In this document: positions 1-9,975 of the stretch, in pieces
Numbering within the stretch: the stretch's first letter is position 1
How the letters are laid out: every line of letters begins with the position of its first letter
Made by a program: the position numbers and the translations under genes
Virus record (IMG/VR): IMGVR_UViG_2529292720_000011
DNA from: a virus
Taxonomy: Duplodnaviria > Heunggongvirae > Uroviricota > Caudoviricetes
DNA length: 28,769 nt
Strand: one strand, 5' to 3'
Notes under the pieces: model-generated
What the model was told of the DNA's origin: nothing
Seen by the model: only the letters and a program-made list of their open reading frames with translations
Databases searched by the model: none

Positions 1-1002
1 TTACCCTCTATTGTCAAAAGGGTTCAATTCAACAGCAGCCTCTAAATGACCTGGAGCAAAATGCGCATAACGCATAGTCATTTTTATATCGCTATGCCCC
101 AGTATTTTTTGCAACACAAGAATATTTCCGCCCCGCATCATAAAATGACTGGCAAACGTGTGACGTAGCACATGAGTTAATTGCCCATCAGGAAGCTCGA
201 TCTTCGCTCTCTTAATTGCAGCGTCAAAAGCCTCATAACATGGTGAAAATAGCGCTCCTCGTTTTTTAGGAAGCATAGCCTGCAATTGAGGTGAAATCGG
301 TACAGTGCGGTTCTTCTTTCCTTTAGTTTTAACAAATGTGATTCGACCGGGCAGTACTTGAGATTGCTTTAATCCTTCTGCTTCACTCCACCGAGCACCA
401 GTCGCAAGCCCAATACGGACAACAACCCCCAAATCTTTATTCCGTGACTCATCACACGCAATCAGAAGGCGTTCAATCTCATCTACATACAGAAACGCCA
501 GTTCCTTTTCTTCCTCACGAAACTTGCGAATACCAGTCAGGGGGTTTTCACCAGACCACTCCCCAAGGCGCTTCAGTTCGGCAAAAACAGCATGTAGATA
601 TGACTGCTCGCGATTAACGGTTGCTTCACTAAGTTTTTTCTTCCCCTTGGGATTCCATTCTCCTGATAGCCTTCTTTCCCGATAAGTAGCAAACATATTT
701 TTGTCAAACTGCGAAGCAAATGGATCTCCCAGCCTGGAACAAATCGCCTCAAGTTTGACTTTGCGCTCTGCACCAGAGGACAAGGTTTTACCGTACATCT
801 CAAACCAACGAGCAATCAACTCAGAAAGACGAGGACCAGAACCATCTTGAAACTCGTCTCCAACTCTACTATTCATTAAACGGCGCTCATAAGAGAGCGC
901 CTCACTTTTTGTCGCAAACTGTTTACGAATGCGTTTTCCCGATGCCCCGTAGGGATAACATTCGCAAAGCCATTTACCTGATGGAATCTTACGAACCGAC
1001 AT
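1..1002 (-). CDS. int: Tyrosine recombinase / phage integrase (P2-186 type)
   Basis: 333-aa ORF with the C-terminal catalytic signature HVLRHTFASHF...LGHSDIKMTMRYAH. It is the last gene of the minus-strand repressor operon, as in P2. The window starts at its stop codon. Confidence 0.95.
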   Translation of the reverse strand: MSVRKIPSGKWLCECYPYGASGKRIRKQFATKSEALSYERRLMNSRVGDEFQDGSGPRLSELIARWFEMYGKTLSSGAERKVKLEAICSRLGDPFASQFDKNMFATYRERRLSGEWNPKGKKKLSEATVNREQSYLHAVFAELKRLGEWSGENPLTGIRKFREEEKELAFLYVDEIERLLIACDESRNKDLGVVVRIGLATGARWSEAEGLKQSQVLPGRITFVKTKGKKNRTVPISPQLQAMLPKKRGALFSPCYEAFDAAIKRAKIELPDGQLTHVLRHTFASHFMMRGGNILVLQKILGHSDIKMTMRYAHFAPGHLEAAVELNPFDNRG

Positions 1003-1007
1003 TTTAG

Positions 1008-1354
1008 TTACTTATCACATAAATCAAATGCAGCCTTAGTGACATCCCCCAGACTCTTTTTTAACCCTGGGGCGGCATCATTATCTAGCCAAAATGGATT
1101 ATTGTTATCTAACGGTAACGCACCAAATGTTTTACCTTTTATTCGAGCCAAACCTGTAAGTGCATATAACTTATTATCGTCAAAATTCATTACATAAGGA
1201 TTACCATCAAGACACTGTAATTGAACCTCATCAGTATTAAATGGCCACACCCCATTGAAACTCTCACGTTCAATGGTTTTAAAAGGCATTGCGACGGCGG
1301 AAAAAGAAAACATAGATAAAAAGTAACTAATAGTTGAACCTTTTTAACTTTCAT
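1008..1354 (-). pseudogene. DUF2511/YebY-like periplasmic protein, signal peptide separated by a 1-nt frameshift
   Basis: ORF 1008..1313 (101 aa) resembles E. coli YebY as I recall it (W.FN..EV.L.C ... Y.L.G ... KKSL ... LC). It has no SD and no signal peptide of its own. A GAGG SD plus ATG at 1354 opens MKVKKVQLLVTF in another frame. One extra base in the A5 run at 1318-1322 would give MKVKKVQLLVTFLSMFSFSAVA|MPFK, a canonical Sec signal. Confidence 0.5.
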
Positions 1355-1383: not shown

Positions 1384-2034
1384 TTACAAATTAAAAAACG
1401 CTCTAGAAATGACACCGCCTACCAACCCCCCTACGCAGATAAAGAATATTATTTCTTTTGGATAAAGTCGGATTAATTCTGAAGCACGAAGTCGGACTTC
1501 TGGTAAGGTCGAACTCTCTGTGTGGCTTGATGCCGATTGTTGCTCTAACCACGACAATGCAGACTGTAACTGAGAACGAGTAAGATCGTTTAAACGTCCT
1601 GTACCGAAATTGATATGGCAATACCGCAGAAGTTTTTGTCGAAGTCCACAGTCTTCACTGTTACGTAGTAATAAACTTACAAGAGCCTTACAGGCATCAT
1701 GATCTTTACATCGCTCAAGCATTGCATGCAGAAAACTCTCCGCTGTTTTATATTGATTTACTGTCATATCATCAATACCAGCTACACCAATCTCCGCATG
1801 TACTTTTTGCCAAATAATAAACGCTTCAGTATTGCTAGCTTCTGCAATAGCAGCAACCAAGCTATTTAGCTCCTTACGCTGAGCCTTAAGCAAAGGGCGA
1901 TCGTCATCATCATTATTCGAAGGGATTGCGATATTGACGGTATGAGAACCATCATATCGCTCTATCTGAATATTCTTTTCGTGAAAATCACGCCCAGCAA
2001 CGCGATTGTTTGAACCGTTTGAGTTGACGGCCAT
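1384..2034 (-). CDS. Tail-anchored membrane protein of unknown function, co-transcribed with the repressor
   Basis: 216-aa ORF with SD GGAGG 4 nt upstream. There is a single C-terminal hydrophobic helix (IIFFICVGGLVGGVISRAFF). The N-terminus GSNNRVAGRDF repeats the C-terminal motif of the upstream repressor. I recognise no catalytic motif. Confidence 0.8.
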   Translation of the reverse strand: MAVNSNGSNNRVAGRDFHEKNIQIERYDGSHTVNIAIPSNNDDDDRPLLKAQRKELNSLVAAIAEASNTEAFIIWQKVHAEIGVAGIDDMTVNQYKTAESFLHAMLERCKDHDACKALVSLLLRNSEDCGLRQKLLRYCHINFGTGRLNDLTRSQLQSALSWLEQQSASSHTESSTLPEVRLRASELIRLYPKEIIFFICVGGLVGGVISRAFFNL

Positions 2035-2049
2035 GTCACCTCCCTACTA

Positions 2050-2454
2050 TCACCTGCCCTTAGTTTCGTTATAGTCACGACCAGCGATACGGTTATTACC
2101 ACCAGAAATATTTAACTCACGTCCTGATGGCTGAGTTTCCTTTTCACTGATCGCACCTTTTAAAGCCCCAATCACCGCGTTTTTCACATCTAACGAAGCT
2201 GCTCGAAAGCGAGTAATCAACTCCTGCTCATCATCGTTATAAGTTTCAGGTGAGTGAATTCCCAACACAACATACTGAACATCAAGGCCAAAACGAGACA
2301 GCGCTGCCAAATACGCAGCATCAGGAAAGCTATCTCCTTTCTCATATCTAAGCTGAGTTAGCTTTTTGACTCCACCAATGTCGCTCATGGCTACTTGACT
2401 AAGTCCCAATCTTTCCCTTTCCTCACGCAACCGCTGACCAATATCATTTTTCAT
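2050..2454 (-). CDS. XRE/Cro-CI family HTH repressor (immunity repressor by position)
   Basis: 134 aa. The N-terminal HTH is IGQRLREERERLGLSQVAMSDIGGVKKLTQLRYEKGDSFPDAAYLAALSRFGLDVQYVVLG. It is divergent from the early operon, like P2 C and 186 cI. The C-terminal tail ends GGNNRIAGRDYNETKGR. Confidence 0.85.
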   Translation of the reverse strand: MKNDIGQRLREERERLGLSQVAMSDIGGVKKLTQLRYEKGDSFPDAAYLAALSRFGLDVQYVVLGIHSPETYNDDEQELITRFRAASLDVKNAVIGALKGAISEKETQPSGRELNISGGNNRIAGRDYNETKGR

Positions 2455-2529: not shown

Positions 2530-2736
2530 ATGAAACAAGTTCTTCACGATACCAGATCACGCATTCCGCGTAACACCGCCACAGGTCCAAGACTGGCCCT
2601 TCGGCTGTCCCTCGAGGAGCGAGCCGTCATTGATGAAATGGCAGCTAAAGAACAACGCTCATCCTCTAACATGGCGCGCATGATCTTCCTTCGCGGCCTA
2701 GAACTAACCCAGAAAGAACAAAACAAATCTTCCTGA
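2530..2736 (+). CDS. Ribbon-helix-helix (CopG/Arc-like) small DNA-binding protein, first early gene
   Basis: 68 aa. RLALRLSLEERAVIDEMAAKEQRSSSNMARMIFLRGLE fits the RHH pattern of a beta strand plus two helices. It occupies the Cro/Apl/Cox position. Confidence 0.6.
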   Translation: MKQVLHDTRSRIPRNTATGPRLALRLSLEERAVIDEMAAKEQRSSSNMARMIFLRGLELTQKEQNKSS

Positions 2737-2752: not shown

Positions 2753-2956
2753 ATGTCAGGTATAACCATCAATATCAATGTGAATGCCCCCTATGTATCC
2801 CTGCAGAAATATGCAGAGATAACAGGTATCCCTCTTAATACATGCAAAAAGATGTTGGCTGACGGTCGAATTATTATCCGCCCCAAACGCGCCAAAATGG
2901 AAAAGCCTGAAGTAAACCTTGTGGCGATGTTAAAAGACGCTTTGACTAACAGCTAA
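2753..2956 (+). CDS. Cox/Apl-like excisionase-type HTH regulator
   Basis: 67 aa. YVSLQKYAEITGIPLNTCKKMLADGRIIIRPK resembles the P2 Cox HTH region (from memory). It is the second gene of the early operon. Confidence 0.55.
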   Translation: MSGITININVNAPYVSLQKYAEITGIPLNTCKKMLADGRIIIRPKRAKMEKPEVNLVAMLKDALTNS

Positions 2957-4280: not shown

Positions 4281-4522
4281 CCATTCTGGACTATATTGCC
4301 GCCAATCCGGGGTGTAGCGGTGGAGAAATCGCCGCAGCACTGAATACCCCAACCACAGCCATTAATGCGGAGTTACGCCGACTCTGGCGCAGCGGTTCAG
4401 TCATAAGAAAAGAGCGCAAAACAGGCGGTCGCTTTTCTTACCAGATAAACCCGATGCCGTTCGGGTGTGGCAATCCACTTACCAACATGTTTAACCAGCT
4501 ACTGAAGGAAGCCAGAGCATGA
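4277..4522 (+). CDS. Winged-helix DNA-binding protein (81 aa)
   Basis: ILDYIAANPGCSGGEIAAALNTPTTAINAELRRLWRSGSVIRKERK fits an ArsR/MarR-like wHTH pattern. It is translationally coupled on both sides. Confidence 0.65.
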   Translation: MTILDYIAANPGCSGGEIAAALNTPTTAINAELRRLWRSGSVIRKERKTGGRFSYQINPMPFGCGNPLTNMFNQLLKEARA

Positions 4523-4831: not shown

Positions 4832-4969
4832 GCACACACAAAAAAACCGCTTGCCATGCCGCAATCAGTCAGGTTACATTTCCGCTGCACCTCATAAAAC
4901 GGGTGCCGGGTTTCGCAGCCCGCTGACAAACGTAGCGCACAACCGCGCCAGCGGTTTTTTTGTGCGTAC
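4832..4969. repeat. 138-bp element closed by a 20-nt inverted repeat, with U7-tailed hairpins on both strands
   Basis: GCACACACAAAAAAACCGCT (4832-4851) matches the reverse complement of AGCGGTTTTTTTGTGCGTAC (4950-4969) at 18/20 positions, with a perfect 13-nt core. The local hairpin AACCGC-GCCA-GCGGTT plus T7 (4941-4961) looks like an intrinsic terminator. Confidence 0.5.
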
Positions 4970-5002
4970 TGTATCGCCACGTCTTTTTCGCATCTGAATT
5001 AT

Positions 5003-5078
5003 GGTGGGGCGTACGGGGCCGACTTCGGTCGGGCCGGGTTCTGCGTTTGCCGGTACTGCGAACCTCGTACGTCTCGCC
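5003..5078 (+). ncRNA. Candidate 76-nt Y-shaped structured RNA
   Basis: Hand fold. A 13-bp closing helix pairs 5003-5015 with 5066-5078 (10 Watson-Crick pairs, 3 G.U). Hairpin 5017-5035 has a C(UUCG)G tetraloop at 5023-5028. Hairpin 5037-5064 has an 11-nt loop. The junction is three-way with single-nucleotide linkers. It sits in a 320-bp non-coding gap. Confidence 0.35.
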
Positions 5079-5140
5079 ACCCACAGTTTCGCAGCTCTGG
5101 ATGGTGAGGTTTCAAAACTTACACACGTAGAGGCCACACC

Positions 5141-5371
5141 ATGGCAAACCGCAAACAGCACCGCGCTATCGCGGAGCGTCGTCACATCCAGACTGAAATC
5201 AACCGCAGACTTTCCCGCGCATCACGCGTCGCGCAAATCATGCACATCAATATGCTGCATGAGCGTAGCTGCGAACTTTCAAACCTCTATTCATCCGCTG
5301 TTTTCAGTTATCTGGCGGATGATCTGCGCGAGCTTCAGCAGCTCATCCAGCAGCAAAACAAACTCCATTAA
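5141..5371 (+). CDS. Hypothetical early protein (76 aa, basic N-terminus)
   Basis: SD GAGG 8 nt upstream of the ATG. The product is a helical basic protein. Confidence 0.65.
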   Translation: MANRKQHRAIAERRHIQTEINRRLSRASRVAQIMHINMLHERSCELSNLYSSAVFSYLADDLRELQQLIQQQNKLH

Positions 5372-5443: not shown

Positions 5444-5809
5444 ATGATTCTCGCCAACGACTTTCTTGAATACCTGCTCAACACAGAACGTGATCTTGCC
5501 GTTCGCGTGCGTGAACGTTATGACATGTACCTGAAATCCCTGCCTGTACCGCAGCTCGCTGACGGAAAGATTGTTATTGATGGTCGCTACATGATTGACA
5601 GCCACGAGGGAAATTACAGGCTTTACCGCATTGAAGGTGGCACCCCGTCCGTTATTGGCATTTACCAGCGCCCATCCTCTGCAATCGTCGATGTGATTGC
5701 CGACAGCATCCGCATCACACATCGCCATGCCGACACAGAAGACACCGTGCTGGAAATTCAGCGGCTGGCTACAGTCTGCCGCGACACCCTGAATGGCATA
5801 ACGAAGTAA
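5444..5809 (+). CDS. Hypothetical early protein (121 aa)
   Basis: ORF immediately upstream of gpA. No motif recognised. Confidence 0.65.
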   Translation: MILANDFLEYLLNTERDLAVRVRERYDMYLKSLPVPQLADGKIVIDGRYMIDSHEGNYRLYRIEGGTPSVIGIYQRPSSAIVDVIADSIRITHRHADTEDTVLEIQRLATVCRDTLNGITK

Positions 5810-8699: not shown

Positions 8700-9659
8700 A
8701 TGAAAATTTGTATCGACGACGGCTCCACCAACATCAAGCTGGCATGGACTGAGAACGGCGAACGCCGCAACGCCATCAGCCCGAACAGCTTCAAGTCGGA
8801 ATGGTCTGCGCCGTTCGGTGGCACGCATCCCGCGAACTACATGCTTGATGGCGTGCGCTATGGCTTTGATCCGGTCAGCGATCGTTTTGTCCAGACGACT
8901 GACACGCAATACCAGTACAGCGATGTGAATGTAATCGCCATTCATCACGCGCTGGTCAAATCAGGCATCACGCCACAGGAGGTGGATGTGGTTGTCACCC
9001 TGCCACTGAGCGAGTATTTCGACACAAACGCACAGCCGGACATGGCCAACATCAACCGCAAAAAAGCGAACGTCATGCGCCCGGTGGAGTACCAGAACGG
9101 CGAAGCATTCACTATCCGTAACGTACGGGTTATGCCTGAATCCATTCCGGCTGGCTTTAAGGCACTGGCTGACATGAGTCCGTTTGAATCCCTGCTGATT
9201 GTGGATTTGGGCGGAACCACGCTGGATGTGGCAAAGGTTCAGGGGCAGCTGGCAGGTATCAGCCAGGTGTTTTGCGATCCAAACGTAGGCGTTTCCCTGA
9301 TGGCTGATGCCGTGCTGTCGGTGATGGCCACTAACGGTATGCGTACCAGTCACCACATCGCCAATACCATTATTGAGCACCGTCACGATGAAGCCTGGCT
9401 GCGCCAGCACATTCACAATGACGCGCATTACAACAGCCTGATGGCGGTTATTCGTGAAAAGGAGGAGACACTGAAACAACGAGTGATCCGCGCGCTGGCG
9501 GGTTTTTCCGGTTACGGGCGGGTGATGGTTGTCGGTGGAGGGGCGGAGATTGTGGCACCCGCTATCCGCGAAGCCTGCGGAGTTAATGCGACTTTCATCG
9601 CGGACGGGGTGCCACAGTTTGCTCTGGTTAATGGGCTGTACGCAATGAACAAGGAGTAA
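8700..9659 (+). CDS. parM: Actin-like plasmid segregation ATPase ParM (StbA family)
   Basis: 319 aa, colinear with plasmid R1 ParM as I recall it. Shared blocks: IDDGSTNIKL, ISPNSFK.EW, QYSDVNV.A.HHAL, VMPESIPAG, DSLLI.DLGGTTLD, VMV.GGGAE, LVNG.Y. Confidence 0.9.
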   Translation: MKICIDDGSTNIKLAWTENGERRNAISPNSFKSEWSAPFGGTHPANYMLDGVRYGFDPVSDRFVQTTDTQYQYSDVNVIAIHHALVKSGITPQEVDVVVTLPLSEYFDTNAQPDMANINRKKANVMRPVEYQNGEAFTIRNVRVMPESIPAGFKALADMSPFESLLIVDLGGTTLDVAKVQGQLAGISQVFCDPNVGVSLMADAVLSVMATNGMRTSHHIANTIIEHRHDEAWLRQHIHNDAHYNSLMAVIREKEETLKQRVIRALAGFSGYGRVMVVGGGAEIVAPAIREACGVNATFIADGVPQFALVNGLYAMNKE

Positions 9660-9663
9660 ACCA

Positions 9664-9975
9664 ATGACGACACCAACCAGAAGAATAAGTTTCTATCTGA
9701 AGCCAGCTGCCGTCAAGAACGAAGGAGAAGCATGCGCATGGCTGGACAGCCTTACACCAGAAGCCCGCAAAAGCGGCCAACGCGTGGCTTTTCTGGCCGG
9801 GCTGGCACTTCTGAAGACGAATCCGGCAGAGGCTTACCGACTGGCCGCATGGGCTGATGATGAGATGTTACCTGTGACACAAATCAGCTCAAAAAAGTTT
9901 GAAGCACAGTCTGCACCAGTGGCTAAGATAACCAGCCAGATGGCTGGGAATATCCGGGCGTTATTTCCTGGGTAA
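9664..9975 (+). CDS. parR: ParR-like centromere-binding adaptor
   Basis: 103 aa. RRISFYLKP...ACAWLDSLTPEARKSGQRVAFLAGLALLKTNP parallels R1 ParR RRTIAFKLNP...LDSIPQGERSRLNRAALTAGLALYRQDP (from memory). SD AAGGAG. It directly follows parM. Confidence 0.75.
   Translation: MTTPTRRISFYLKPAAVKNEGEACAWLDSLTPEARKSGQRVAFLAGLALLKTNPAEAYRLAAWADDEMLPVTQISSKKFEAQSAPVAKITSQMAGNIRALFPG

Follow-up and report, generated by a model that had tools for sequence, protein, structure and literature searches.

A co-varying terminal peptide shared by a predicted prophage repressor and its membrane-anchored neighbour suggests a cognate association tag

Why does a predicted phage repressor end in nearly the same peptide with which the protein encoded just downstream begins? 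This question is posed by a stretch of DNA of 28,769 nucleotides (IMG/VR record IMGVR_UViG_2529292720_000011; hereafter the window), which is a P2-like Escherichia coli prophage. On its minus strand, a 134-residue XRE-type helix-turn-helix (HTH) protein, the predicted repressor, precedes a 216-residue membrane protein (Table 1). The repressor terminates in ...NISGGNNRIAGRDYNETKGR (also written ...RELNISGGNNRIAGRDYNETKGR) and the membrane protein starts with MAVNSNGSNNRVAGRDFHEKN. A preliminary description of the window had drawn attention to a motif, NNR[IV]AGRD[YF], common to both ends, and we confirm it where it was reported, with GGNNRIAGRDY encoded at 2071-2103 and GSNNRVAGRDF at 1984-2016. 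The ungapped likeness is longer than first described and covers 17 residues, LNISGGNNRIAGRDYNE in the repressor and VNSNGSNNRVAGRDFHE in its partner; the peptides LNISGGNNRIAGRDYNETKGR and MAVNSNGSNNRVAGRDFHEKNIQIERYDG represent the two motifs of the pair. The motif pair is real, far beyond chance: its 17 residues score 62 with BLOSUM62, compared to 21.0 +/- 3.9 for a residue-shuffled N-terminus (z = 10.6). A six-frame translation of the window contained no further copy of the motif.

The same arrangement recurs in many other prophages. In a forward survey of 80 loci, fetched by the repressor profile with one genome per species, most tail-bearing repressors are followed, -30 to +35 bases away, by a gene whose product repeats the tail's own variant of the motif at its N-terminus. 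Besides the window, the motif pair was seen in 30 non-identical loci, with spacings of -23 to +35 bases. In Gamma- and Betaproteobacteria, the module is found in prophages of the P2-like, the Mu-like and other kinds; the P2-like examples reside in Enterobacterales and Aeromonas and have int downstream (one with GPA, Ogr, GPD and GpU genes nearby), and one of the other prophages carries a Rha gene. The motif sequence changes between loci, for instance to QVFHGQVGQ.. or QQINGPISGGVAGRDF. Repressor tail and next N-terminus read, respectively, QIFNGDISGQFAGNQIIN and QEFNGTAQGQFSSRDIIN in Pectobacterium (locus L012), QQINGPISGGVAGRDFVQ and QEINGDVEGGIAGRDIVR in Rhodocyclaceae (L013), KQVFKGSVSGVAGRDVVK and KQTFKGPVGDVAGNDVVK in a proteobacterial metagenome-assembled genome (L017), TVDYGNAQIGQASAGDIVN and TVSFGGAQIDQAAAGDINN in Jeongeupia (L018), QVFHGQVGQ and QIFRGQVGQ in Bordetella (L020), and QQFNGPVGSVTSGDVVN and QQFNGAVEQVAAGDIKN in Ectopseudomonas (L029). 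The reverse look-up, starting from six distant proteins of the partner family, retrieved an upstream XRE gene with a matching tail in all six cases, with pairs such as KMVVHGDVGQTVKGNVTIEGG with ENIIHGDVGIVAEGDVIQNN and EQIFHGSVGQVIKGDATYEKG with MTQSFHGDTGVVAGGDVFNVT. The motifs still match in a P2-like locus (L082, 1182-2810) in which an unrelated 88-residue gene sits between the repressor and a motif-bearing protein of the Flk_N family discussed below. MAFFT alignment of joined repressor-partner sequences placed the partners' N-terminal motif on the repressor tail motif, hence the two are alignable.

Co-variation was scored on 35 dereplicated loci, selected by the sole criterion that a downstream open reading frame (ORF) of at least 100 amino acids start -30 to +35 bases from the repressor stop. 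The mean score between tail and N-terminus was 39.3 for cognate and 22.7 for non-cognate combinations, and none of 20000 permutations was as high as the observed cognate sum. The cognate partner ranked first in 11 of the 35 loci and among the top three in 18. Independently evolving termini would leave a tail no closer to its own partner, and the cognate excess therefore indicates co-evolution. Several variants of the motif occur within the single genus Pseudomonas (loci L009, L021 and L058), each matched by its own partner, which argues for specificity between phage-encoded parts; Gilliamella likewise holds several variants, each with a matching cognate partner. The central idea of the preliminary description, that the motif functionally links the repressor and the membrane protein, is thus upheld by aligned homologous pairs from many prophages, in which the motif both co-occurs and co-varies, and we regard such a link as very probable.

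At which level is the match maintained? The preliminary description had noted similarity of the underlying DNA and had read the motif pair as a short local duplication across a gene boundary. The quoted DNA strings of the two motifs are indeed identical at 17/23 positions, which is only what encoding the same amino acids yields: five of the seven identical residues in NNR.AGRD are encoded by different codons. Across the 30 loci, codons are identical at 128 of 267 identical-residue positions, compared to 123 expected from codon usage. The synonymous sites of the two copies are randomised, and the match is therefore selected at the protein level; these numbers show no trace of a recent duplication or gene conversion. 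An ancestral fusion that was later split had been another proposal. We reject it, and the idea of read-through as well, on account of the frame and spacing, which differ among loci (a 4-base ATGA overlap is common), of the unrelated cytoplasmic domains of the partners, and of the lack of an HTH/Flk_N fusion among the best 120 of 232 repressor matches and among all 135 Flk_N-family representatives. In the window, the two genes happen to share a frame, with TGA TAG TAG GGA GGT GAC and then ATG between them; the in-frame stops and the shared frame look coincidental, since the frame varies in other loci. The notion that the motif could be a generic low-complexity feature of unrelated proteins is refuted by its fixed position and by the absence of a matching Pfam family. 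Searching Pfam with ten isolated tails and N-termini (E <= 10) produced no amyloid motif; the lone match was a sub-threshold Gp5_C repeat.

Both motifs reside in flexible extensions of otherwise folded proteins. For the repressor, Pfam matches to HTH_31, HTH_19 and HTH_3 (E = 8e-5 to 1e-3) lie below gathering scores, the PHROG matches are phrog_8 (2.5e-14) and phrog_4/3 ('transcriptional repressor'), and the NCBIfam match is RstR/DicA-like. AlphaFold2 predicts five helices within residues 5-64 at a predicted local distance difference test (pLDDT) score of about 90, the five-helix HTH_3-type DNA-binding domain of XRE-family temperate-phage repressors. Since the gene diverges from Arc-like and Cox-like genes (2530-2956) and lies upstream of the co-oriented int, the protein occupies the place expected of the immunity repressor, and related loci have the same layout. 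The tail that follows is modelled as disordered. Homologues across Enterobacterales conserve it as [IV]N[IV][ST]G..[NHQ]R[IV]AGRD[YF][NH]E..K and terminate in a basic run, and the core of the repressor (HTH and helix) is conserved far more than the tails.

The membrane protein is predicted to consist of the motif-bearing disordered extension, an all-helical domain and a C-terminal anchor. PF27202 (Flk_N) is precomputed for nearly all listed partner homologues, a search with the partner-family profile retrieves Flk-like proteins, and the NCBIfam Flk model matches residues 37-166 (E = 8.6e-16). Orthology to Flk itself is not supported, given the score of this match (58 bits, far below the equivalog cut-off of 353), the prophage location, and the N-terminal motif, which Flk proteins lack. 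Homologues of the partner begin with M.VNS.G..NR.[AS]GRD[FY].E[NK]; S5, G7, N10, R11, D16 and E19 are invariant in 15 of them, and residues about 39-46 are variable. Flk is a cytoplasm-facing, tail-anchored regulator, whose Flk_N domain is regulatory and not pore-forming (PMC13344023). The partner shares the features of the Flk_N family, namely the helical domain and a C-terminal anchor with a cytoplasmic N-terminal part, the topology being taken from Flk; its N-terminal motif should therefore be cytoplasmic, in the same compartment as the repressor. A Foldseek search of the partner model against the PDB returned no match at E <= 0.001, the best being short three-helix pieces, so that its fold offers no clue to function. 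The partner contains no nucleoside triphosphatase (NTPase) or repeat domain and does not qualify as an NLR/STAND-type sensor. PADLOC assigned it to no defence model and gave weak, HTH-level matches for the repressor.

What the partners have in common is the motif and the membrane. Flk_N is not common to all of them, and their cytoplasmic domains are unrelated; they are nearly always membrane-anchored: 23 of 31 satisfy a strict hydrophobicity criterion, and of the remainder most end in a shorter hydrophobic anchor. Chromosomal Flk proteins present the reverse case, in which the domain is present and the motif is missing. The longer partners of loci L010, L018 and L044 (260-325 amino acids) have a stretch that resembles a coiled coil, a single transmembrane helix and, at the C-terminus, a conserved domain with Cys residues (for example C.FDG.P...G....C); this last domain would be periplasmic and might act as a sensor. 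In L014 (4838-5137) and L050 (4861-5628), the product of a further downstream gene likewise opens with the tail motif (ISVKGDRNIVAGGDIY and TQEFNGNVGQVAGGNIYNY, respectively), and hydrophobic segments are found in both of these products. The motif thus acts like an N-terminal tag that can be carried by different proteins, and one repressor can have two tagged membrane partners. Some partner N-termini contain two or three motif-like repeats (L044, L058, P0278 and P0331), a feature also of regions that form beta-solenoids.

How could such a tag work? Ordinary interfaces are complementary, and two ends that remain alike while drifting require either homotypic beta stacking or mimicry at one docking site. 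Because the partners are alike, not complementary, and drift together, our leading, still tentative explanation is a cognate-specific homotypic association tag, most likely acting by in-register beta co-assembly of the two tails. Amyloid-signalling pairs of fungi and bacteria are defined by a C-terminal motif of one gene that equals the N-terminal motif of a collinear adjacent second gene, at tiny or overlapping spacing (10.1101/2020.01.06.895854), and one such pair, Bab/Agp (BASS11), functions in an E. coli prophage (10.1101/2024.11.07.622273). We favour beta co-assembly because the layout of our loci equals this discovery criterion, because Bab/Agp works in such a host setting, and because the tandem N-terminal repeats fit a stacking unit. 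The repressor would bear the tag on its disordered C-terminal tail, and the membrane protein, made from the same lysogenic transcript, on its disordered, cytoplasm-facing extension. The two tails would co-assemble as homotypic in-register beta strands, in a contact of the beta-solenoid or amyloid-signalling type. By this contact the membrane protein could capture, cluster or convert the repressor, leading to its sequestration, clustering or inactivation. Repressor activity, and with it the maintenance or induction of lysogeny, would thus be coupled to a state or signal located at the membrane, in a manner specific to the phage immunity type.

A stronger version of this explanation, control of the immunity repressor of proteobacterial temperate phages by prion-like amyloid templating from a membrane-anchored sensor, is conceivable and in our judgement unlikely. 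Here, the partner's N-terminal motif would nucleate a cross-beta fold that propagates to the repressor tail and turns the repressor off or clusters it, giving an SOS-independent, immunity-type-specific and membrane-triggered induction switch. P2-like phages are classically not SOS-inducible.

Several observations weigh against beta co-assembly. Disorder in the monomer models fits it without showing it. The enterobacterial variant of the motif contains many charged residues (R, D, E and K), which is unusual in an amyloid core, and no Pfam family, of curated amyloid motifs or otherwise, was matched. Neither protein is of a known amyloid-signalling type, as the pair lacks both an NLR/STAND sensor and a pore-forming effector. 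For at least five tail-bearing repressors (L016, L026, L028, L030 and L066), tblastn revealed no recognisable partner with the tag within 4 kb; their tails (near 4300-4450) are long and Gly-rich, of the type FHGxVGQ...TFxVGGKKK. Hence the tail must also serve a purpose independent of a partner, and may act alone in these cases, for example in repressor self-association. Finally, the likeness of the partners is equally predicted if one motif mimics the other.

It is this mimicry that accounts for the data nearly as well as beta co-assembly, and we consider it possible, if rather doubtful. The two motifs would dock, one at a time and without touching each other, on a common site encoded by the phage, possibly the repressor core, in which case the tail would drive oligomerisation, or the helical domain of the partner, whose own N-terminus would then be an autoinhibitory pseudo-ligand. 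The membrane protein would serve as a built-in decoy, tether or anti-repressor. Such competition predicts similarity and not complementarity, as observed, in a variant specific to each phage, and the flexible extension at the partner's N-terminus suits it. It also explains the partner-less repressors naturally, as their tails would have a target of their own. However, AlphaFold docks neither tail on its own folded domain, which is weak evidence, and a site in the partner domain is unlikely since the tag occurs on partners with unrelated cytoplasmic domains. A site in the repressor core is possible, but a core that is conserved so much more than the tails would have to read very different motifs. 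Of the readings in the preliminary description, two are therefore still live, a shared interaction tag and a membrane-tethered tail mimic.

Alternatively, the membrane protein might be an exclusion or abortive-infection factor, that is, an effector or toxin expressed in the lysogen and restrained or triggered through the repressor tail. Its co-transcription with the repressor would parallel that of lambda rexAB, with the XRE protein acting, in addition, much like an antitoxin. The location of the gene in the lysogenic operon between repressor and int speaks for this reading, as do the diversity of the small membrane proteins that serve as partners and the fact that the known amyloid-signalling pairs are defence systems. 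Nonetheless, we consider it improbable: the membrane protein matches no PADLOC defence model, the domain it shares with Flk is not a pore-former there, and the upstream protein is encoded where an immunity repressor is expected, opposite in direction to the Cox-like and Arc-like genes.

Less probable still is a common degron or adaptor tag, by which the same host protease or chaperone, of the ClpXP, Lon or FtsH type, would read both proteins, with the membrane protein competing for it or delivering the repressor. Such control would recall that of the phage Mu repressor through its C-terminal ClpX determinant. The motifs are terminal and disordered, the repressor tails end in a basic run, and the module is frequent in Mu-like prophages, all of which would suit such recognition. 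A host factor, however, should impose one motif per host, and this is at odds with the cognate-matched variants that coexist within Pseudomonas and within Gilliamella and with cognate pairs that are more alike than non-cognate ones; moreover, C-terminal and N-terminal degrons are not normally alike in sequence. This proposal of the preliminary description is accordingly disfavoured. That the motif is a relic without function, left behind by a gene split, a junction duplication or ongoing gene conversion, might be read from the shared frame of the window genes, the three stops between them and the 17/23 identity of the DNA, but is almost certainly wrong, being already contradicted by the randomised synonymous sites, by the lack of fusions among the relatives covered above, by the varying frame and spacing, by the cognate co-variation, and by motif residues that are the most conserved ones within otherwise variable termini across bacterial orders.

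The prophage region that carries the pair occurs in 525 of the 5426 complete genomes of E. coli (~10%), among them that of the enterotoxigenic E. coli (ETEC) reference strain H10407. Over the 2 kb around the motif pair, identity is 100% with a segment of strain ETEC-2264 and 99.7% with ETEC H10407. A search of a phage collection gave a single sequenced phage with the region, Escherichia phage 520873 (97% identity), in which the membrane gene is unannotated. The coordinates of the pair and of its neighbours are listed in Table 1.

Table 1. Features of the window around the motif pair
Feature	Position	Strand	Basis or detail
Tyrosine integrase (int)	1-1002	-	ORF listing and family matches
DUF2511 protein	1008-1313	-	ORF listing and family matches
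Tail-anchored membrane protein, 216 aa; N-terminal motif and Flk_N-like helical domain	1384-2034	-	ORF listing; phrog_5825, Flk_N homologues, AlphaFold2
C-terminal transmembrane anchor, residues about 184-215	1390-1485	-	AlphaFold2 helix 184-215, hydrophobic segment 192-210
Flk_N-like all-helical cytoplasmic domain, residues 45-173	1516-1902	-	pLDDT 94-98 over 51-170, 87 for the 41-50 block
Disordered N-terminal extension, residues 1-44	1903-2034	-	AlphaFold2 pLDDT 52-61, no secondary structure
Partner N-terminal motif VNSNGSNNRVAGRDFHE	1978-2028	-	
Gene junction	2035-2052	-	Stop TGA 2050-2052, two in-frame TAG, Shine-Dalgarno GGAGG 2039-2043, ATG 2032-2034
XRE-type HTH prophage repressor (predicted), 134 aa; HTH 5-64, two helices 74-105, disordered tail 105-134	2050-2454	-	ORF listing
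Disordered repressor tail, residues 105-134	2053-2142	-	AlphaFold2 pLDDT 40-47, no secondary structure
Repressor tail motif LNISGGNNRIAGRDYNE	2065-2115	-	
Arc-like gene	2530-2736	+	Divergent from repressor
Cox-like gene	2753-2956	+	Divergent from repressor
DUF4761 gene		+	Divergent from repressor

Other features of the window deserve mention in their own right. Farther along lies a gene for a gpA-like replication initiator. Directly upstream of it, Rfam matches at the gathering level identify isrK (4887-4961, plus strand, 69.6 bits) and a C4 antisense RNA (4997-5084, plus strand, 80.4 bits), followed downstream by two small ORFs of function-unknown families (5141-5371, phrog_3688; 5444-5809, phrog_3237). 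This layout resembles the c4-icd-ant antirepressor cassette of P1/P7, here in a P2-like prophage, and could provide a second route for inactivating the repressor. Downstream of the replication gene, at 8700-9975 (plus strand), two genes of this integrated P2-like prophage match the phage partition families phrog_691 and phrog_2515. The DUF2511 gene begins 12 positions into its PHROG profile, and a typical signal-peptide start (MKVKKVQLLVTFYL...) is located just upstream in another frame (ORF 1190-1354, minus strand), beside a T-rich run; a frameshift or an alternative start may be involved.

P2-like and Mu-like prophages are abundant and the inactivation of their repressors is poorly understood, and the co-evolving peptide points to an undescribed route of lysogeny control, with a testable coupling to the cell membrane. 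The literature we searched on amyloid signalling in connection with repressors, prophages or transcription factors, on Flk and on P2-like immunity regions contained no description of such a pair. If beta co-assembly is true, the logic of paired terminal motifs would apply not only to NLR/effector death systems but also to the regulation of genes in unicellular bacteria; if amyloid templating is true, amyloid signalling would for the first time be seen to act on a transcription factor and on the choice between lysis and lysogeny. More generally, likeness between the C-terminus and the N-terminus encoded by adjacent genes, looked for beyond NLRs, can reveal new protein-protein signalling tags.

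How does the pair compare with known systems? The membrane protein resembles Flk (Fluke/RflH), the flagellar secretion-switch inhibitor of Salmonella and E. coli, in having a helical Flk_N domain that faces the cytoplasm and, after it, a membrane anchor at the C-terminus. Flk, however, is a chromosomal protein of 333 amino acids with two copies of the domain, and it starts with MQP... in place of the motif. Membrane sequestration of transcription regulators is exemplified by Mlc, which is held by PtsG, and by sigma-E, held by RseA; as in those systems, a cytoplasmic regulator is combined with a membrane-anchored partner that could keep it off DNA. Those partners use complementary folded interfaces, whereas here a near-identical peptide is present on both. 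In phage Mu, the flexible C-terminal tail of the repressor is a ClpX/ClpXP determinant that governs repressor inactivation. Our repressors share with it a flexible C-terminal tail on a temperate-phage repressor, and the module is common in Mu-like prophages; unlike Mu Rep, the repressor here is a small, unrelated XRE protein, and we know of no partner protein that shares the tail sequence of the Mu repressor.

The closest parallels are the fungal pair HET-S/NWD2 and the bacterial BASS pairs of a Bell-domain protein with an NLR, Bab/Agp included. They have in common with our loci a motif of about 17-25 residues that is C-terminal in one protein and N-terminal in the next, in adjacent collinear genes with very small or overlapping spacing, and that lies in a flexible terminal extension. 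Also shared are the likeness of the two copies, which are rich in Gly, Asn, Gln and Val with alternating hydrophobics, and the existence of many pair-specific motif families. The differences lie in what the motifs are attached to. Here, the C-terminal motif is borne by an XRE DNA-binding repressor in place of a membrane-disrupting Bell/HeLo effector, and the N-terminal motif by a small tail-anchored protein of the Flk_N type in place of an NLR/STAND or TPR sensor. The setting is the phage immunity region, in unicellular Proteobacteria. We do not count the pair among the amyloid-signalling pairs, since it has no NLR-type sensor and no death effector and matches no curated amyloid motif. We treat the repressor/membrane protein pair as a new form of paired-terminal-motif signalling.

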